Shown here: positions 2,851-64,000 of the stretch, piece after piece | How positions within the stretch are numbered: the stretch's first letter is position 1 | Layout of the letters: the number at the start of each line of letters is the position of its first letter | Source: a virus | Reading direction: 5' to 3' (one strand) | Length of the DNA stretch: 64,000 nt | Virus record (IMG/VR): IMGVR_UViG_3300026488_000012 | Span: 115,976 to 179,975 of that record | The notes under the pieces: model-generated | The model's database searches: none | What the model was told of the DNA's origin: nothing | Seen by the model: the letters and a program-made list of their open reading frames with translations, nothing else | Translations under genes and position numbers: made by a program

Positions 2851-3384
2851 TTTATTTTAATTTATACGTTAACCCTATATGGGAAAACAATGAATACGAC
2901 TGAAATATCAGTCGTACATAAAGATAGGAGACTGGTAAATGAGTATTATCAAGAGTTAAAAAACCTGTCTGATGACCAGAAATTCTGGTTGAGTGAGGTG
3001 TACAAGACCTGTCTAGAGTATGATCTAGGTTATACTTGCGTAGCGATAGCTTGGGAAGAATCCAAGTTTAATAAATGGGGAGATAACGAAGCAGGTGACT
3101 ACGGTTTAATGGGTATAAACCTATACTGGTACATGATAGACAACGGACTTAATTATAGAAACAAATATAGGAGAATAGAAGTCCGCACTAGGTTAATAAG
3201 AGATAGTTACTATAACTTAAGGTACTCTATATCTAAGCTTATAAAATTAAGAAAGAAGCATAAGAACAACTGGTTTAAAATATGGGGTTGTTATAACGGA
3301 GGTACAACCCCTAACTATTACTATAGTAGAAGAATATTGAATAGAATTTATGCTTTTAGAAAATGGTTAAAGACAAATAACTAA
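2839..3384 (+). CDS. SLT-family lytic transglycosylase with N-terminal hydrophobic signal
   Basis: AIAWEES (catalytic Glu), GDYGLMGIN, YNGG motifs; ATG 2839 after AAGGAG. Confidence 0.8.
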   Translation: MRFLFILIYTLTLYGKTMNTTEISVVHKDRRLVNEYYQELKNLSDDQKFWLSEVYKTCLEYDLGYTCVAIAWEESKFNKWGDNEAGDYGLMGINLYWYMIDNGLNYRNKYRRIEVRTRLIRDSYYNLRYSISKLIKLRKKHKNNWFKIWGCYNGGTTPNYYYSRRILNRIYAFRKWLKTNN

Positions 3385-8297: not shown

Positions 8298-8416
8298 TTG
8301 TTATTTCAAATTTTTTCATTTATGTATTACTAAACTGTAACAAAACAAAAAACCTCTCTACCAAGTACTGCTCCTCTGGTGTGAAGGAGAAGGTCGAGAC
8401 TAACCCCGGTGGTATA
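8293..8416 (+). repeat. 124-bp direct repeat, copy 1 (copy 2 at 63875-63998)
   Basis: Identical from CTCTCTTGTTATTTC to GGTGGTATA: terminator arm + early promoter + 5' half of the leader RNA. Confidence 0.93.
8323..8341 (+). promoter_or_regulatory. early promoter
   Basis: TGTATTACTAAACTGTAAC, contains the TATTAC core. Confidence 0.7.
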
Positions 8417-8471
8417 AGGGGAGTCAGAAGACCTTCTCGACGAAGAGGAGACGTGGAACGGTAGAGAGGTT
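8351..8471 (+). ncRNA. structured 5'-leader RNA, variant A (unrecognised family; loop-E and K-turn-like motifs)
   Basis: Nested stems 8351-62/8460-71 (12 bp), 8371-77/8444-50, 8387-95/8430-38, 8398-401/8422-25, 8404-07/8418-21; covaries with the copy at 26687. Confidence 0.8.
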
Positions 8472-8485
8472 AAAAGGAGTAGATA

Positions 8486-8992
8486 ATGAAAAAAATTAAA
8501 GTGGAGTACGATTATAAAGAAATTTCTTCCCCTGATATTGACGTTATAAAGGAGATAAGAATTGGCGAGAAAGTAGTCTCGCCAATAGCAGTAAAAGGAG
8601 TAGAATCCATTAGTCCCAACAGATTATTTAGCAATGTAACTAGTGCAAGAGCAATAGTTCTTGCTTATCTTTTTGAGGATGAGATAAATAATTTGTTGCC
8701 TTACCCTATGATGATTTTCGATAATAGAGGAACAAATGTGGTCGCTACGGAAAGAGAGGAAGATGAATTTCTCTCTTATGATTATGTAGATATGACAGGG
8801 GTTAATTGTGGAAGAAGTCAACCGACTTATAAGATATTTGAGTTAACCGGGGACCTAATGACCGATGTTTATCACATCATTAACCCTCCGGTGAGGATAG
8901 ATTATATCTATCCTAAGTTTAGAGCGGATATTCTTTATTTAGGGAATCAGGCGTTCGCTCTACTTGATGTAGAATTTATAAAACCATATTAA
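8486..8992 (+). CDS. early hypothetical protein behind leader RNA A
   Basis: AAAAGGAG SD directly after the RNA stem; terminator 8994-9011. Confidence 0.8.
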   Translation: MKKIKVEYDYKEISSPDIDVIKEIRIGEKVVSPIAVKGVESISPNRLFSNVTSARAIVLAYLFEDEINNLLPYPMMIFDNRGTNVVATEREEDEFLSYDYVDMTGVNCGRSQPTYKIFELTGDLMTDVYHIINPPVRIDYIYPKFRADILYLGNQAFALLDVEFIKPY

Positions 8993-26576: not shown

Positions 26577-26656
26577 TAATAGAATATCGAGTTTAATAAA
26601 CAGTTAAAAATAACCGGGAGTTATCTCGGTTATTTTTTTTTATTTTTTTATAATTA

Positions 26657-26675
26657 TATATTACTAAGATACGTG
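26657..26675 (+). promoter_or_regulatory. early promoter
   Basis: TATATTACTAAGATACGTG with exact TATTAC core after hairpin 26609-26634 and a T-tract. Confidence 0.7.
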
Positions 26676-26686
26676 ATTAAAAAAAA

Positions 26687-26819
26687 ACCCGTAAGTCCTT
26701 TTTGAAAGAGTACTGCTCTCCTGGAGAAGGAGGAGACTACGACTTATCCCGTTGTTCTGTGGGAAGTCAGAAAGTCTCCTCGACGAAGGAGAGATGTGGA
26801 AAATCAAGAAGGCAGGGGT
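26687..26819 (+). ncRNA. structured 5'-leader RNA, variant B
   Basis: Stems 26716-22/26787-93, 26730-38/26773-81, 26741-44/26765-68, 26747-50/26761-64 plus basal stems; loops conserved relative to variant A. Confidence 0.8.
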
Positions 26820-26833
26820 AAAAGGAGCCAAAA

Positions 26834-29020
26834 ATGGCTAAATTAATAGTGAAAAGAGATAGAATTGTATTTAAAAAAGAAACTATCTTAGAAAATAGAT
26901 CTTTGACAATTAAAGGTCTAAAAAGATTTCTCAACAAGAGAAATCTTAAAATAAAAGAAAAAGATTTAAGCGCAGCATATGCTGCGTATACTGGAGAAAA
27001 TTCTCCAGTTAAAGTTCCTGTTATAACAGGGAAAAGAAGAAAAGGAGTTGTTTCTAGGGAAGAAAGAATCCCTAGAAACACTCCTGTTAAAAGTCTAAGG
27101 GGGGATATCCTCCCTAAAAAAGTCTCTTTAAAAGAGAGACTTAAAGCGGCTGTGAAAAAAGCAAAAGAAGACGGTCATAGATTCGCAGCCGTTAGAACCG
27201 CATACGGTCTTATCGAAGTTCGTAGAAGAACGAGCTTTGATGAGACCTATGAAGTTTTTATGGAGGTCTTTAAAGAAAAAAGGGCTGAAATACTAGCGTA
27301 TGAAAAAGCGCTAAGTGAGGACTTGTCCCATCCTCACTTAGCGAAACATTATATTAAAGAGTTTGGGGACAAAATTATCCCATACTTTAAGCTGGTTGAT
27401 ACAATGGCTTTATCCTACGGTATGAATCCAAGGAACGTGTGGGATTCATGCGGAGTATGGGGAATATCTCCTGACCTATTCCTATTCAAGATTGGTGACA
27501 AAGAACATCTTCACAACATAAAAGTTGTGAAGATGTTCGTGGAGATAGCCCTAGAAACTTTAAGAGTTAGGGGGAGGGTGGATCGTATTCCAAGTATATT
27601 CCACCCATCAGTATTTTTCGAACAAAGAGAAAGAATGAAAGAATACAAAGAAAAAATTGATTCTAATATAGTCTATCCAGGGATCGAAGAGTATGAAATA
27701 TTTATCTCGATCTTCTGGAGACTATATAAAAAATACGGAGTAGACGGAATTCCGTCACTACGCATTACCCAGTTAATGAACTGGGATGAAACCTGGGATG
27801 AATTACTGGGTTGGAAAGACGAGGATCTATTACCTCTAACGCTAATGTTAATAGATTCGGACTTCTACTCCATCGATAAAGTTAAAACCGGTGAGGGTAG
27901 AAGAGGCGGCTATTATAAGATAAATTTCAGAAAACTAAATAACTGGAAGAAACTTAGCAAGAGGGAAAAAGCTAAGTTTCTTCCAGCGCCATTAGCTTGG
28001 AGACTCCTATTCAATAGGAAAGCTCCAGATGGAATCGAATTTCGTGATCCTAATCCTGTTAACTTCACGAGAGCTTCTCAAAGGGCTTTTCGTGAGTTAG
28101 CAGAAATCATCAAACGCGACGACAGGGGATATTTTGCTGCTAACATTAAAGCAGCGTATCACCTTAGTCTCGCGTTTGGTGATATGAATACAGTGAAAAG
28201 ATGGCTAAACGCACTAGGATTGAAAGTGGATGCGCTAGGCATTCACGACGCGTTCGTAAACGCCCACCATTTCTTAAAGCTTAAATATAAAGAAAAATGG
28301 GCGGCGCTCCTAATCAAATTCCCTGGGCTCAGAAAAGTTACATGGGCTTTTAGGGAGTTTGAGAGGGAGTTTGGACGCGTAGCAACTAAAACTGAAATCA
28401 GTAGCTATGCCGCGACTAAAAAATATAGGAATGTAAAATTAAAAGATGTCGCGGAGATAGCTGCTGAGTTAAAATTATCTCAGAGGGAATTTGAGGATTA
28501 TCAAAACTTTTTCCTCAAAACCCCTGAGAAAAAATCTACTATGTTACCAAATGTGGTTGTCGAGAAAGGTGAATATAAATTTAGAAAACTCGATGACCAC
28601 GATAAAATAGGCCCGTTCTTAGGGTTGTTGACAGACTGTTGTCAACACCTCCATAACGCAGGTGACACATGTGCTAAGGCGGGATGGAGGGACCCTGAGA
28701 GCGGGTTCTATGTCGTCGAGAAAGACGGCAAAATAGTTGCACAATCTTGGGCGTGGAGAGGTAAAAAAGGCGAGCTTTGCTTTGACTCTATAGAAGGGCT
28801 CGGTAATGTTAATGTTAATATAATTGCCGAGCTATATAAAGAAGCAGCTCGTCAGTTAGTCGGCAAAATGGGGATCACTCGCGTGACTGTGGGTGATACC
28901 TCATATGGCTTAACTGAGGATGTAAAACAAATCCTCGGTGGAGTCAACCGCGAGTCAGCGGTCATGATCAAAAAGGTGTCTTATACAGACGCTGATGATC
29001 AGTGGCTCTTAGCCGACTAA
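26834..29020 (+). CDS. large basic protein with C-terminal PcfJ-like/GNAT-fold domain; elevated GC
   Basis: K/R-rich N-terminus; C-terminal LGLLTDCCQH..AG.TC..GFYVVE..GKIVAQSWAW..LCFDSIE. Confidence 0.6.
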   Translation: MAKLIVKRDRIVFKKETILENRSLTIKGLKRFLNKRNLKIKEKDLSAAYAAYTGENSPVKVPVITGKRRKGVVSREERIPRNTPVKSLRGDILPKKVSLKERLKAAVKKAKEDGHRFAAVRTAYGLIEVRRRTSFDETYEVFMEVFKEKRAEILAYEKALSEDLSHPHLAKHYIKEFGDKIIPYFKLVDTMALSYGMNPRNVWDSCGVWGISPDLFLFKIGDKEHLHNIKVVKMFVEIALETLRVRGRVDRIPSIFHPSVFFEQRERMKEYKEKIDSNIVYPGIEEYEIFISIFWRLYKKYGVDGIPSLRITQLMNWDETWDELLGWKDEDLLPLTLMLIDSDFYSIDKVKTGEGRRGGYYKINFRKLNNWKKLSKREKAKFLPAPLAWRLLFNRKAPDGIEFRDPNPVNFTRASQRAFRELAEIIKRDDRGYFAANIKAAYHLSLAFGDMNTVKRWLNALGLKVDALGIHDAFVNAHHFLKLKYKEKWAALLIKFPGLRKVTWAFREFEREFGRVATKTEISSYAATKKYRNVKLKDVAEIAAELKLSQREFEDYQNFFLKTPEKKSTMLPNVVVEKGEYKFRKLDDHDKIGPFLGLLTDCCQHLHNAGDTCAKAGWRDPESGFYVVEKDGKIVAQSWAWRGKKGELCFDSIEGLGNVNVNIIAELYKEAARQLVGKMGITRVTVGDTSYGLTEDVKQILGGVNRESAVMIKKVSYTDADDQWLLAD

Positions 29021-29037
29021 CCTCTCCTTTTTTTTTT

Positions 29038-30354
29038 CTAAATTATGTCATTCAGGTCTAATTTAACAAGATTTAGACTTGAGTCGTGCATTGCTTTCAT
29101 ACTTGAATTAAGTACTTTACCGAACATATCTATAACCATTAGCGCTATACCGTTTTCATAATTTTTCATATCCTCACCCATACATACTTTACATCTACCG
29201 TGTTTGTCTAGTTTACAGTACATAGGGGTTCTTAGTTGTACTAGTTTACCTATATATTTTTTAGCTTCTTCTTCAGTAGATATCAACACAGGCTTACCTT
29301 GTTTTAATATATATCTACCTTTTAATTCTTTATAATTCATATCCGTAACATTTAAGTTATAATACATTTTACTACCGCAGTCTGTATCTAATACTTTCAT
29401 ATCGATAGTTGCTCTCAATCCCTGCTTAGCTCCGTATCCACCTTTCTGAGTTTCAAATCCCCTTTTAAAACTACCCTCTCTAATATCGTTATAGAGAACT
29501 GTTATTTTTTCATCATCTATATCCCATCCCTCTGCTAATGATTCAGGAACAACATGTGCTTTACCATCTTTAAAATAAAAACTACCTCCGTGTCCATAAC
29601 TCAGATACATCTTTTTCATAGCGTTTAAGACTTTACCTTTTACATATGTTTTAATAGTAGGATCGTCTTTTAGATACTCTTTCTCATATTCTAATAACTT
29701 CTTATCTATCTCAGCTACCTTATCCAGTTTTTCTAATACATTATCTCCGTATTTTTTCTTGTATTCGTTTATTAATTTCTCTCTGTATTCTTTAATGTTA
29801 GGAGGAGGTTGCGTGGTCTTTTCTGTAGATGACACTGCTATCAATCTGTTTAATCTTGACAAATAGATAACATAATCTACGAACTTCTCGTACTCAGCTA
29901 TAGTTATATGTGTTTTACCTTTTTTCTCTATCTCGTCGTTAGATATAAGAAGATTCTTAATGATTGTATCTTCTATATCGCCTACTGTGAATGGTGCGTT
30001 AATATAAGCTACCTTATTATTAAAAGGTTTATAGATTACTATAAAGTTAGCAAGAAGTCTACCAAATGTAGTATCCATGTCTTCATCTATAAAAGGTAAG
30101 AATCCTTTAGGTAGATGTAAAGGTGTTTTAGGCTTTAGTAAAGGTTCGTTACTATAATCAGTATTCAATTCTAAAAGTTCGATTTCATTAGTTTCAGTAT
30201 TCTTTATTTTTCCATAAAAAACATTATCTTCCACCTTTACGAATTCATCTTCTGTACCATCTGGTAATAATGATAGCATATCGACTAACCAGTCGAAGTT
30301 TAATGGATAGTCGTTTTCAAATGCGTATTTTAAGTATTTTAAAATATTATTCAT
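29038..30354 (-). CDS. virion RNA polymerase beta' subunit, C-terminal part (phiKZ gp80-like)
   Basis: TQKGGYGAKQGLRA bridge helix, DCGS, LRTPMYCK..CKVCMG zinc site, MKAMH. Confidence 0.85.
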   Translation of the reverse strand: MNNILKYLKYAFENDYPLNFDWLVDMLSLLPDGTEDEFVKVEDNVFYGKIKNTETNEIELLELNTDYSNEPLLKPKTPLHLPKGFLPFIDEDMDTTFGRLLANFIVIYKPFNNKVAYINAPFTVGDIEDTIIKNLLISNDEIEKKGKTHITIAEYEKFVDYVIYLSRLNRLIAVSSTEKTTQPPPNIKEYREKLINEYKKKYGDNVLEKLDKVAEIDKKLLEYEKEYLKDDPTIKTYVKGKVLNAMKKMYLSYGHGGSFYFKDGKAHVVPESLAEGWDIDDEKITVLYNDIREGSFKRGFETQKGGYGAKQGLRATIDMKVLDTDCGSKMYYNLNVTDMNYKELKGRYILKQGKPVLISTEEEAKKYIGKLVQLRTPMYCKLDKHGRCKVCMGEDMKNYENGIALMVIDMFGKVLNSSMKAMHDSSLNLVKLDLNDII

Positions 30355-51385: not shown

Positions 51386-51412
51386 ATATTTATTTTTAAG
51401 CATAATTGATTA

Positions 51413-51431
51413 AATATTACTAACTTGCAAC
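51413..51431 (+). promoter_or_regulatory. early promoter
   Basis: AATATTACTAACTTGCAAC with TATTAC core. Confidence 0.65.
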
Positions 51432-53736: not shown

Positions 53737-53764
53737 GTCTCTTTTTTTTATTTTTATATGTTTA

Positions 53765-53783
53765 TATATTACTAAAATGTAAT
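53765..53783 (+). promoter_or_regulatory. early promoter
   Basis: TATATTACTAAAATGTAAT. Confidence 0.72.
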
Positions 53784-53807
53784 AAAAAAAATAAAAAAGG
53801 AGTAGAT

Positions 53808-54230
53808 ATGATACATGTAAATGGATTTAGATTAGGAGTATGGAATACAGAGAATCCTGCAAGAAGATTTAAATTTGAATACTTCAAAAGTATTCTAGAA
53901 CCACATGGGTTCTGGGATACTGAAGAGGATGATTATGAACATATAAGTGAAATGATTAATACAGGTGATGTTGAGGTATGGTATAATGACCACGCGATTG
54001 CTGTTCTAGTTTACGATTTAAATTTAAAAATTTGGGAAATTTCGATTCTCGTATCCACCAAAAAGGGATACGGGAGAATTTTAATAAATCAGTTACTAAC
54101 CATAAAAGATAGGTTAGTAACAACGCCTATCAACGAAAAAGTTCGTAATTATTATAAAAAGATAGGCGGAAAAGATTTTGGTAGAAAGTCTATTATATTT
54201 AAAAGGAGTGAGAATGATAATAGAAATTAA
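53808..54230 (+). CDS. GNAT-family acetyltransferase-like protein
   Basis: ISILVSTKKGYGRILI (motif A), VRNYYKKIG (motif B). Confidence 0.6.
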   Translation: MIHVNGFRLGVWNTENPARRFKFEYFKSILEPHGFWDTEEDDYEHISEMINTGDVEVWYNDHAIAVLVYDLNLKIWEISILVSTKKGYGRILINQLLTIKDRLVTTPINEKVRNYYKKIGGKDFGRKSIIFKRSENDNRN

Positions 54231-58343: not shown

Positions 58344-58375
58344 TCCCACGATACGATTCTTATTTTTTATGTTTA

Positions 58376-58394
58376 TATATTACTAAGTTGTAAA
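58376..58394 (+). promoter_or_regulatory. early promoter
   Basis: TATATTACTAAGTTGTAA; upstream TATGTTTATATATTACTAA shared with the 53765 promoter. Confidence 0.72.
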
Positions 58395-58413
58395 AAAAAA
58401 ATAAGAAAAGGAG

Positions 58414-59055
58414 ATGATGATGAAATTTTTAGAGGACTTAGTATTAAATATTGTAGAAGGGAATTTGTTCCCTTCTAAAGAGGAGTTATTATATTCTAAG
58501 AAAAAACAAATGAGTGAAGAAGAGGTTATGGAGCTAATAGTTGGCGGTATTGTAAATAGAGATTTTATAACGGATTTCAGCTGGATGATGCCTACTGAAG
58601 ATAATATACAAAAACTGTATAAACTATTAAAAGGTAAGAAGGTACTGGAGATAAACGCTGGTACCGGATTAATCGCTAATAGATTAAATAAGTTAGGGAT
58701 TGATATAACTGCTACTGATAAAAGTTCTGAAAAATTCAACGAGGTAGCCGAGACCTTTAGGATACACACAGAAGGAAATATTCCTGTGATAGAAAAAGAT
58801 GCGTTATCAGCTATGAGTGAATTCGATTACGATGTTATATTAAGTATATGGCCTCCTTATAAGGACGACTATATGCATAAAGTTTTAGAGAAATTACCAA
58901 GAGGTAAGGAGCTTGTTGTGGTCGGTGAAGGAATGGGAGGCTGTGTGTCTAACGACGCATTCTGGACAATGTTAGAGTCTATGGAATATGATTTCATTCC
59001 TATAGACACTTGGCCTGGTATCCATGACGCAATATGGAGAGTTACTAAGGAGTAA
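58414..59055 (+). CDS. class I SAM-dependent methyltransferase-like protein
   Basis: VLEINAGTG (motif I), ITATD, DALSA, SIWPPY, VVGEG.GGC. Confidence 0.75.
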   Translation: MMMKFLEDLVLNIVEGNLFPSKEELLYSKKKQMSEEEVMELIVGGIVNRDFITDFSWMMPTEDNIQKLYKLLKGKKVLEINAGTGLIANRLNKLGIDITATDKSSEKFNEVAETFRIHTEGNIPVIEKDALSAMSEFDYDVILSIWPPYKDDYMHKVLEKLPRGKELVVVGEGMGGCVSNDAFWTMLESMEYDFIPIDTWPGIHDAIWRVTKE

Positions 59056-60374: not shown

Positions 60375-61022
60375 ATGGCTGATCCAAATACAATACATCA
60401 AACAACATCTTCCATATTTGAATCAGGTTTAATAGAGATCGTTATAGCTATTATAGGATTTGGAGGATCTATATTTGCGTCTATGAGAATAGCTGAGAGT
60501 AAGATAAAAAACCTATATAAAGAAGTTGAGAATACCATACCTAATTATGTAAATAATTCAGTAAACCACTTAGGAGATATGCTTACAATAAAGATAGAAT
60601 CTATTATAAAAGATATAGAGAAGATAATAACAGATTCACAAGCTTCAGATTCTGCATTAGAAAGAAAAATAAATGAAGACGTTTCAGCTTTAAAAGAAGA
60701 AATAAGAGAAAAATACGAGATTTTCGAGAACTATAAAAAACTTCTATTTCAAAAATATGATAATCTACATGACTCCATACTAGAATTTAATAAAGTCGTA
60801 CACGACTTGAAAACCGAGATAACGGTATTTAAAGAAAAATACATATCCAAGACAGACGCTAATTCCGAGTATACGACTAAAGAGACTTTTAATATATATA
60901 AGAACCAAGTAGATGGTTCAATAAACAGATTAGAAAATACAATGGAAAAAGTATTAGACAAAATAGGTAACCTTGATGAATCTATAAGTGAAGTACTAAT
61001 ATCGCTAAGTAAAAGGAGTTAA
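60375..61022 (+). CDS. membrane-anchored coiled-coil protein
   Basis: TM IEIVIAIIGFGGSIFA then heptads. Confidence 0.7.
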   Translation: MADPNTIHQTTSSIFESGLIEIVIAIIGFGGSIFASMRIAESKIKNLYKEVENTIPNYVNNSVNHLGDMLTIKIESIIKDIEKIITDSQASDSALERKINEDVSALKEEIREKYEIFENYKKLLFQKYDNLHDSILEFNKVVHDLKTEITVFKEKYISKTDANSEYTTKETFNIYKNQVDGSINRLENTMEKVLDKIGNLDESISEVLISLSKRS

Positions 61023-61998: not shown

Positions 61999-63075
61999 AT
62001 GGATAAAAGAAAATGTACACCAGGAGTATGTTTAGAAAAATGTTTGGAATGTAACAAAAAGGGACTAGGCTGTTGTGATACAGCTGTTCCTTTTAAAGAC
62101 GAGGAACTAGCAAAAGTTCATTTTGAAAATAGTCTTATAAGCGAAATGAGTGATGAGATACAGATAGTGAGAGGTGATGATAATTACTTATACGTGGTGA
62201 GTAAAGAAGATGTGACCGGTAGTAAAGTGGTTTTATCGGATAGACCTTGTGTTTTCTTCGACGGAGAAACATATAAATGTAAAATATATGATCACAGACC
62301 CGAAGCCTGTAGAAAGTATGGTGAAGTAAATAATCCTTGTATTTTTACAAATATAGACGTTGAGGATGTTAAAAACATTGAATTAGGAAAAGAAAAAATA
62401 AGAGACATCAAAATAGAAAGGATTCTATCTAAGCACAAGAATAGATTAGTGAGGTCATATTTGTCTCTCAAATTTCCTAAAATCAAGAAGTTTAGTAAAA
62501 AAGATTTGAAAAACATGAAAGAAGAGATGCTGTTATATCTTGTTATAAATGCTATTAATTTATTAGAGGACAAAGAACAAGGTAGTAGCGTTTGTCCAGA
62601 GTTGTTTGAATTTACATATAAATATCAATTAGTTATGATAAACAATACGCAGATATCTTCTATTAAATTAAAACAAATGAGTGCTAACCATGATGCTTTT
62701 AAAGGATTTGATAGAACCTATAATATCCTTAATAGGAAGTTCGTAATGAGAGACCCTATGTATCTCCAGATATTAGTAGGTAAACTCAAAAGAGTATTGA
62801 GCGGTGTAGAAGTATCAGAGATAAAAGAAATACCAAAAAATAGTGTTATAGGTAGAGTAGGTGAAGCTGTTGTTTTACTAGACTTATGGAAAACTAAGTA
62901 TAAGAACAAGTCCAATAGTTATAAGGGTATAATAAATGAGGACAATATATATAAACTAAAGAAATGGATTAATAAAGAGTTAGGAAGCGAGAGTTTAATA
63001 AATCCAGCAACAGGGTTTATTAAATTATACGAAAATGGTGAAAGAATTTACAAAGCTATATTAAAACAAAAATAA
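61999..63075 (+). CDS. YkgJ/UPF0153 (CxxCxxCC) Fe-S/zinc cluster protein with C-terminal extension
   Basis: CLECNKKGLGCCD...PCVFF..CKIYDHRPEACRKY. Confidence 0.8.
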   Translation: MDKRKCTPGVCLEKCLECNKKGLGCCDTAVPFKDEELAKVHFENSLISEMSDEIQIVRGDDNYLYVVSKEDVTGSKVVLSDRPCVFFDGETYKCKIYDHRPEACRKYGEVNNPCIFTNIDVEDVKNIELGKEKIRDIKIERILSKHKNRLVRSYLSLKFPKIKKFSKKDLKNMKEEMLLYLVINAINLLEDKEQGSSVCPELFEFTYKYQLVMINNTQISSIKLKQMSANHDAFKGFDRTYNILNRKFVMRDPMYLQILVGKLKRVLSGVEVSEIKEIPKNSVIGRVGEAVVLLDLWKTKYKNKSNSYKGIINEDNIYKLKKWINKELGSESLINPATGFIKLYENGERIYKAILKQK

Positions 63076-63544: not shown

Positions 63545-63856
63545 ATGGATAAAAAAGTAGTTGGAGCAGATATTACTCTAGAGAGAGTTACGTTGGTAGA
63601 AAAGGTTAAATTAGATGGTAGACACAGGTTAATAGTTGCACATATAAAGGTAAAATTCACAGATAACGATGTTAAAAGTAGCTGGGTAGAATTGTACGAT
63701 GTTACTTATAGTAACCCTAAGTATGTAATGGAGCAACTTGGAAAACTTAAAAAACAATTAGAGGGAAATAAGTACATCTATAAAGGACCTAAGAAATTGA
63801 GATATGATATACTAAGAAGAATGTTTATAAATAACAGCAAGATAAAAGAACTGTAG
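63545..63856 (+). CDS. hypothetical protein
   Basis: AAGGAGG SD. Confidence 0.7.
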   Translation: MDKKVVGADITLERVTLVEKVKLDGRHRLIVAHIKVKFTDNDVKSSWVELYDVTYSNPKYVMEQLGKLKKQLEGNKYIYKGPKKLRYDILRRMFINNSKIKEL

Positions 63857-63882
63857 CAAGAGAGTTGATATCAACTCTCTTG
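63857..63882 (+). terminator. perfect 26-bp palindrome terminator (GATATC centre)
   Basis: CAAGAGAGTTGAT/ATCAACTCTCTTG. Confidence 0.75.
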
Positions 63883-63998
63883 TTATTTCAAATTTTTTCA
63901 TTTATGTATTACTAAACTGTAACAAAACAAAAAACCTCTCTACCAAGTACTGCTCCTCTGGTGTGAAGGAGAAGGTCGAGACTAACCCCGGTGGTATA
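63875..63998 (+). repeat. 124-bp direct repeat, copy 2
   Basis: Identical to 8293-8416; continues past the window end. Confidence 0.93.
63905..63923 (+). promoter_or_regulatory. early promoter
   Basis: TGTATTACTAAACTGTAAC. Confidence 0.7.
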
Positions 63999-64000
63999 GG
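63933..64000 (+). ncRNA. structured 5'-leader RNA, variant A second copy (truncated by window edge)
   Basis: Identical to 8351-8416 except one fewer A in the apical loop. Confidence 0.75.

Follow-up and report, generated by a model that had tools for sequence, protein, structure and literature searches.

The locus considered here raises the question of whether the segment that separates an early promoter from the gene of a 728-aa phage protein is a functional RNA, kept by selection on its fold and carried in front of unrelated genes, and what such an RNA may do for the messages that bear it. The segment lies in the window, i.e., the whole stretch of 64 kb that was analyzed and that constitutes the end of a single IMG/VR virus record, G000 (179,975 bp, 30.5% GC). 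G000 encodes split multisubunit RNA polymerase subunits and its closest relatives carry a phiKZ-type major capsid protein and chimallin; it is therefore considered a phiKZ-like, nucleus-forming jumbo phage. The relatives of G000 originate from hydrothermal-vent metagenomes; the vent samples containing them are represented by the assemblies ERZ940688, ERZ27262636, ERZ27262679, ERZ23491869, and ERZ23497056. According to CheckV the record has an estimated completeness of 66%, and two relatives of ~186 kb have terminal repeats.

All helices (P0-P5) proposed for the segment in front of the 728-aa gene, referred to as copy B, were found at the positions given below by direct reading of the letters, and the minimum-energy fold calculated for 26680-26835 is one long irregular hairpin with the same stems (-54.3 kcal/mol). 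Dinucleotide shuffles of this sequence gave -36.6 +/- 3.7 kcal/mol and none of 200 was as stable (z -4.8), evidencing that copy B folds as stated in the original prediction and that shuffled controls do not reproduce its stability by chance. In window coordinates, the parts of the locus are the following.

26606-26637, + strand: intrinsic-terminator-like hairpin (14-pair stem) and T run, which close the upstream operon just before the copy B promoter
26654-26667, + strand: early-promoter motif of copy B (TTATRTATTACTAA), with exact repeats in the window
26687-26819, + strand: leader RNA copy B, P0-P5 (133.8 bits with the covariance model)
26687-26690 with 26816-26819: P0 of copy B
26697-26705 with 26804-26812: P1 of copy B
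26716-26722 with 26787-26793: P2 of copy B
26730-26738 with 26773-26781: P3 of copy B
26741-26744 with 26765-26768: P4 of copy B
26747-26750 with 26761-26764: P5 of copy B
26709-26713 and 26798-26801: basal AGUAC/GGAA module of copy B
26723-26729 (7 nt) facing 26782-26786 (5 nt): K-turn-like loop of copy B
26751-26760: apical loop of copy B, 10 nt
26820-26836, + strand: SD (AAAAGGAG) and start codon (ATG) of the 728-aa gene, immediately after the hairpin and unpaired according to the prediction (P 0.75 for the SD)
26834-29020, + strand: cargo gene encoding the 728-aa protein, 39.9% GC, no Pfam family

Two additional features of copy B were considered and discarded. An upstream ORF of 15 codons (26794-26841), which begins within the hairpin's 3' strand and runs across the main start in another frame, was rejected as probably fortuitous because it is absent from copy A (a similar one occurs in copy D). 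The idea that the apical loop pairs with the 5' A-tract or the conserved loops was also dismissed, as the copies showed no consistent complementarity.

The promoter motif TTATRTATTACTAA occurs exactly at 8320, 26654, 53762, 58373, and 63902, in all cases on the + strand and just upstream of a gene; together with near variants it precedes at least 13 further genes in the genome, always on the + strand. It belongs to the phiKZ-type early promoters and not to the TTGACA/TATAAT class. Early promoters of phiKZ-like phages consist of an AT-rich motif of ~10 nt centred near -10 (PMC7598289), and the 5' UTRs of phiKZ are typically 31-40 nt long (PMC8244752). We infer that TTATRTATTACTAA is the early promoter read by the virion RNA polymerase and that transcription starts a few bases downstream. 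At least eight promoters of the same type are followed by a plain leader of roughly 35 nt containing, in this order, a short A-rich tract, AAGGAG, and ATG. Plain leaders in the window include the following.

53762-53775, + strand: same promoter motif, with a plain short leader (A-tract, then SD, no hairpin)
58373-58386, + strand: same promoter motif, with a plain short leader and no hairpin

In plain leaders (53762-53810, 58373-58416, and 51410-51427) the motif is followed by TAA-R-N-TGTAA, an A-tract and, ~35 nt later, the SD. In the five G000 copies a GC-rich hairpin of ~120 nt stands within the A-tract, 4-12 nt before the SD, the full order being terminator, early promoter, A-tract with hairpin, SD, and ATG. 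The hairpin is thus an optional insert, since the same type of promoter occurs at least eight times with the plain leader. This agrees with the proposal that the leader is a discrete module: it is inserted in an otherwise standard early leader, before proteins without detectable similarity. In each of the leader-bearing mRNAs the prediction leaves the SD unpaired (P 0.75-0.98), with no competing fold, which argues against a self-contained switch that sequesters the SD. Two other promoter-like sites of G000 (about 60758-60830 and 70309-70380, outside the window) precede short GC-rich self-complementary leaders unlike those of this family.

A search with a covariance model built from the copies evidenced at least five of them in G000, all on the + strand. 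Their positions, with that of the copy A promoter, are given below.

Copy A, + strand: G000 124317-124451 = window 8342-8476 (element 8351-8471), 149.9 bits, before a 168-aa ORF (8486-8992)
Early-promoter motif of copy A, + strand: window 8320-8333
Copy B, + strand: G000 142661-142794 = window 26686-26819, before the 728-aa ORF
Copy C, + strand: G000 1-119, with the promoter and 5' half at window 63902-64000, before a 138-aa ORF
Copy D, + strand: G000 3105-3237 (outside the window), before a 255-aa ORF
Copy E, + strand: G000 62612-62747 (outside the window), before the gene of a MYG1-type nuclease

Copy A folds like copy B (z -6.4) and is identical to copy C from the terminator tail as far as the SD (~190 bp), with complete divergence thereafter; copy C, which is split by the contig end, was not among the copies first compared (A and B). 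The interiors of B and D are almost identical and their basal stems are different. Further copies, F and G, were detected on two related vent-phage contigs. Version F is located at the very start of its contig, before an 80-aa ORF (63.9 and 95 bits with the first and second models, respectively; fold z -8.0), and version G directly upstream of the gene for the homologue of the 728-aa protein in another phage (44.3 bits, E about 1e-9; fold z -7.4), with an extra hairpin in its distal part. Altogether, six distinct versions are known from three lineages. In addition, the MYG1 gene of a relative is preceded by a short element that has 12 + 14 bases identical to the base of copy B, holds both halves of the basal module and has no upper arm; with a fold that is not statistically distinctive and a score of only 9.7 bits, it is possibly a reduced form of the leader.

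The start and the end of G000 both fall within the repeated leader (window 63860-64000 and G000 1-119) with an overlap of ~65 bases and one mismatch, and a related contig (L103) likewise begins inside its own leader copy. G000 may be either circularly permuted or broken by assembly at this repeat, maybe with missing sequence. Assemblies appear to break at the leader, and such breakpoints are a practical warning to be drawn from it. The ENA contig that contains version G (L113) carries at positions 1-33 an adapter-like sequence left untrimmed in the public assembly, presumably akin to the Nextera transposase adapter.

The evidence for selection comes from the comparison of these versions. When the in-genome copies were aligned (MAFFT) and folded jointly (RNAalifold), 12 of 37 pairs had changed on both sides. 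In the alignment of the six distinct versions, two of them from relatives, 25 of the 37 pairs showed compensatory changes, which are present in all helices, and 95.6% of the cells were paired vs 43-51% in a control with the pairing partners slid, figures to be read knowing that this alignment was fitted to the model and hence leans towards structure, and that some alignment rows are paralogues that exchange segments. The observed covariation score was not reached by any of 500 shuffles of the six-version alignment. The family spans just three lineages and is thus very narrow, so that its covariation rests on six distinct sequences. Every version contains G-U pairs, and in six of six the + strand exceeds its complement in stability by 2-10 kcal/mol, which indicates an RNA on the transcribed strand and not a DNA cruciform; a cruciform or origin acting at the DNA level was excluded on these grounds and by the single orientation of the copies. 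Fold z-scores range from -4.8 to -8.0 across the tested versions, and the stability of the hairpin, -50 to -60 kcal/mol at 37 C, is still -16 to -22 kcal/mol at 75 C. The leader is thus shown to be an RNA of about 120 nt with a single, stable arm that covaries, and its fold is clearly kept by selection. The original prediction of maintenance by selection on structure was borne out by the compensatory changes in all helices, the invariant loops and the consistently greater stability of the + strand, and its aligned stems withstood the shuffled controls.

Three unpaired elements are invariant across lineages: two near the base, AGUAC in the 5' strand and GGAA in the 3' strand, and the apical loop, which has 10 nt, takes the form G-K-U-G-K-Y (GUUGUU-type) and remains constant while the helices change. 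AGUAC and GGAA are present in six of six versions and in the possible mini form. In all versions they read as a bulged-G motif (sarcin-ricin/loop E, S-turn), i.e., AGUA, then C facing G, then GAA, a likeness that extends to the sequence signature only. AGUA/GAA with the closing C-G are the same letters as those in the stem of the eukaryotic sarcin-ricin loop; the latter has a GAGA tetraloop, which the leader lacks. Copy E folds in the sarcin-ricin register, whereas in the five remaining versions a different one (UAC with GUG) is preferred by the energy model.

The K-turn-like loop consists of GAAG facing GACGA after a bulge of variable length, which has 3 nt in B and D, 5 nt in A and C (for variant A, as initially described) and 6 nt in E and G, and is absent from F. 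Tandem G.A pairs are allowed in A-E, as judged from the letters and not from geometry. Version G has an A where the second G.A pair requires a G, resulting in A-A at this position, and version F, with GUA facing UACGG, has neither the bulge nor the GA steps. Copies B and D, which combine a regular helix, a 3-nt bulge and facing G-A steps next to the helix, display the minimal signature of a K-turn; however, in copy B four nucleotides face five past the 3-nt bulge, and two face three beyond the tandem pairs. The proposal of a canonical K-turn in copy B is therefore retained as regards the 3-nt bulge and the possible tandem G.A pairs (shared by D), and the term canonical is not, given the asymmetry of 4 nt vs 5 nt. 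As a trait of the family the K-turn had to be abandoned, with a bulge of 5-6 nt in A, C, E, and G (3-6 nt overall), the second pair lost in G and the motif missing in F. On this comparison the K-turn is not a defining feature of the leader family, and the GAAG/GACGA loop seems to behave like a conserved asymmetric purine loop, a putative K-turn only. A gene for an L7Ae-family protein (PF01248) was not found in the phage record, which may be incomplete (CheckV 66%).

Sequence comparison revealed no mutual similarity among the proteins encoded behind copies A, B, C, D, E, and F, in agreement with the earlier statement that the downstream genes of A and B (168 and 728 aa) are unrelated, as no sequence similarity was detectable between them. 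The leader-bearing genes have 35-40% GC vs 30.5% in the genome. Most of them directly precede a T run or a convergent gene, and the leader units are consequently regarded as mostly monocistronic cassettes; long multi-gene early units use the plain leader. Right after the stop codons of leader-bearing genes (29018-29040; G000 545-570 and 63610-63635) there are runs of 9-10 T with a pyrimidine stretch and no obvious intergenic hairpin; they may act as terminators, with a stem formed by the end of the coding sequence, or as a phage-polymerase-specific signal.

The 728-aa protein had been described as PcfJ-like. This assignment was not sustained, since the protein matched no Pfam or PHROG family and gave no PcfJ (PF14284) signal; its C-terminal ~160 aa may be GNAT-like according to an Atlas structure model only. 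A single homologue was detectable among 5.8 billion proteins, with 47% identity and encoded by another phage, and the gene is likely a recently acquired accessory gene. This only homologue carries the same leader (the B/G pair), and the MYG1 genes of two lineages, 26% identical, both have a form of the leader, full in one and possibly reduced in the other. The claim that the RNA moves independently of its cargo thus holds in part: A and C are one cassette in front of unrelated genes, but the B/G and MYG1 associations persist, indicating that the leader is both portable and stably kept. Other accessory genes, among them Tad2-like and Apyc1-like (anti-Pycsar-like) ones, occupy the corresponding genomic slots of the relatives. 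No similarity was found between the 138-aa protein of copy C and the product of the gene in the relatives' same slot, and for this copy an argument of gain or loss based on orthologues is consequently not available.

Searches for known families and for further members gave a consistent picture. Rfam 15, with T-box, SAM-I, SRP, 6S, ribosomal-leader, and Y RNA models among its families, yielded no match at the gathering threshold for the window and five related loci, and at E<=10 only scattered, unrelated weak matches for B, A, and G. With 3.1 kb as the query, blastn gave no match among 50,697 phage records, and DNA patterns scanned three times through IMG/VR and once through JGI metagenomes matched coding sequence by chance only, the covariance model rejecting all of these matches. 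Two covariance models, R1 and R2, detected no match in 38 and 19 whole related jumbo-phage records, among them the two of ~186 kb with terminal repeats and ~50% polymerase identity. No match was found either in the syntenic loci of relatives with ~60% identity at the position of copy A, and a descriptor scan for AGUAC...GGAA closed by a stem recovered the known copies and a background at the shuffled rate only. Hairpin ribozyme, T-box Stem I, SRP, and Y RNA were rejected as candidates, with their defining parts missing and no Rfam score. The leader family is real but narrow.

Other gene-free regions were noticed in the relatives during the analysis. A stretch of ~260 nt in two of them (L106:9725-9990 and L103:985-1290) has 39-42% GC, ends in a T run, shares a conserved 21-nt box, and adjoins a DUF7484 gene; it has no Rfam match, is absent from G000 and is possibly another undescribed phage RNA. 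In a close relative (L019:7050-8430), a gene-free region of 1.4 kb and 24% GC with purine-rich and AT-repeat tracts lies between an Endonuclease_NS gene and a 174-aa gene.

As to its nature, the leader is probably a cis-acting structured RNA, not previously described, that would lie in the 5' UTR of a subset of early transcripts. As to its function, we tentatively favor, at somewhat less than even confidence, a recognition element: a trans-acting factor would bind it and thereby set how translation starts on the messages of a small early regulon and, as a secondary effect, how long these messages last. The invariant unpaired nucleotides (AGUAC...GGAA, GAAG/GACGA, and the apical loop) would provide the recognition surface, and the factor would most likely be a protein encoded by the phage or by its host, or else the ribosome. 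The AGUAC...GGAA module would lie one helical turn above the SD, and binding of a factor near the SD would obstruct or trap the 30S subunit, in the manner of classical translational operators. In addition, the body of the message would be shielded by the very stable GC-rich arm. In this way the leader could mark early, mostly accessory and mostly monocistronic genes for common post-transcriptional control, and the cassette of terminator, promoter, leader, and SD would spread by recombination between copies. In the phage record, which may be incomplete (CheckV 66%), no RNase III, dsRBD, L7Ae, or PcfJ signal was found.

The observations can also be accounted for by a passive stabilizer or insulator, a GC-rich hairpin that would block 5'-to-3' decay or RNase scanning with no specific factor and would keep the SD from pairing with foreign coding sequence, so that new genes are reliably expressed. 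The extreme stability for a genome of 30% GC (-50 to -60 kcal/mol at 37 C), the open SD and the GC-shifted, unrelated cargo genes are in line with this idea, and the upper arm, which lacks the GA loop in F, has an extra hairpin in G and is missing from the possible mini form, is variable or possibly dispensable, which fits a passive stabilizer as well as an operator. Nevertheless, ~20 unpaired nucleotides are invariant across lineages while the stems change, which argues against a purely passive barrier, as a barrier would need none of them, and the inferred single-stranded A-rich 5' tail of 11-20 nt would be a poor protector of the 5' end, so that this explanation is held to be somewhat unlikely. 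A further reading, in which the leader would be a docking tag whose sarcin-ricin-like module and apical loop engage the ribosome, a translation factor or an early phage protein, giving privileged or timed translation to early accessory, possibly anti-defense, messages before the phage nucleus forms, is viewed as unlikely. Much the same doubt, in slightly stronger form, attaches to the idea that the element is mainly a recombination or mobility cassette, with its fold secondary, that provides homology for shuffling accessory genes as PeSLs do. This idea, which is not exclusive of the others, would explain the identity of A and C over ~190 bp before unrelated genes, the nearly identical interiors of B and D with different basal stems, the breaks of two metagenomic contigs and of G000 exactly inside the element and the different accessory genes (Tad2-like, Apyc1-like) in the relatives' same slots; it leaves unexplained the compensatory changes, the G-U pairs, the single orientation, and the invariant loops, and a plain promoter-leader would offer equally good homology.

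The remaining explanations fare worse. Early RNase III sites of the T7 R0.3 type resemble such hairpins, and a long irregular hairpin with conserved internal loops, in the same orientation before early genes, could be processed by a host double-strand- or structure-specific RNase, the cleavage trimming the leader and setting translation and stability. This is judged improbable, as the phage record encodes no RNase III or dsRBD and loops that should kink or distort the helices interrupt them every 4-10 bp. Conserved internal and apical loops are also what a riboswitch or other ligand or tRNA sensor would have, and K-turn-like and loop-E-like modules occur in SAM-I, lysine, and T-box leaders; yet Rfam offers no meaningful match even with the limit relaxed to E<=10, an expression platform is lacking (open SD, no terminator/antiterminator alternative), the architecture of the upper arm is not conserved and the cargo genes have no pathway in common. 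A sensor of this kind is considered highly unlikely. Equally slight is the case for an antitermination RNA of the put type that would modify the virion RNA polymerase: putL and putR of HK022 sit immediately downstream of promoters, as the leader does, but most leader units comprise just one gene, with a T run or a convergent gene directly after it and thus nothing that needs read-through, and the long multi-gene early units have the plain leader.

The recognition element retained as the preferred explanation would bear on how nucleus-forming jumbo phages order their first messages. Early expression in these phages is understood at the promoter level only, and an optional, modular 120-nt leader on early accessory genes would mean post-transcriptional sorting of the first messages; were the docking tag true, it could point to a general layer of post-transcriptional control over jumbo-phage early genes, so far unrecognized. 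The leader is a small, defined RNA with clear mutational targets (AGUAC/GGAA, the purine loop, and the apical loop) for finding its reader factor, as well as a marker for early accessory or possible anti-defense cassettes in uncultured vent phages.

With regard to known systems, the RNase III hairpins of the T7 group and the T4 operators (RegA, gp32) are likewise repeated or shared RNA elements beside ribosome-binding sites in early messages, where they determine translation and stability; the leader is much larger and has no sequence or structural homology with them. The closest published analogue of the leader cassette is the PeSL (PMC2839356). In T4-type phages, PeSLs are small, repeated cassettes of a terminator and an early promoter that flank non-essential accessory genes of variable regions and serve as recombination points (PMC2839356, PMC4122927). 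The leader loci are similar in that they also combine a terminator with an early promoter, occur as identical copies before different genes and have variable cargo. Conversely, the stem-loop of a PeSL is the terminator itself, a DNA-level element for the host sigma-70 polymerase, whereas the leader adds, downstream of the promoter and within the 5' UTR, a covarying RNA of ~120 nt with invariant loops, and its promoter belongs to the type that serves multisubunit polymerases encoded by phages.
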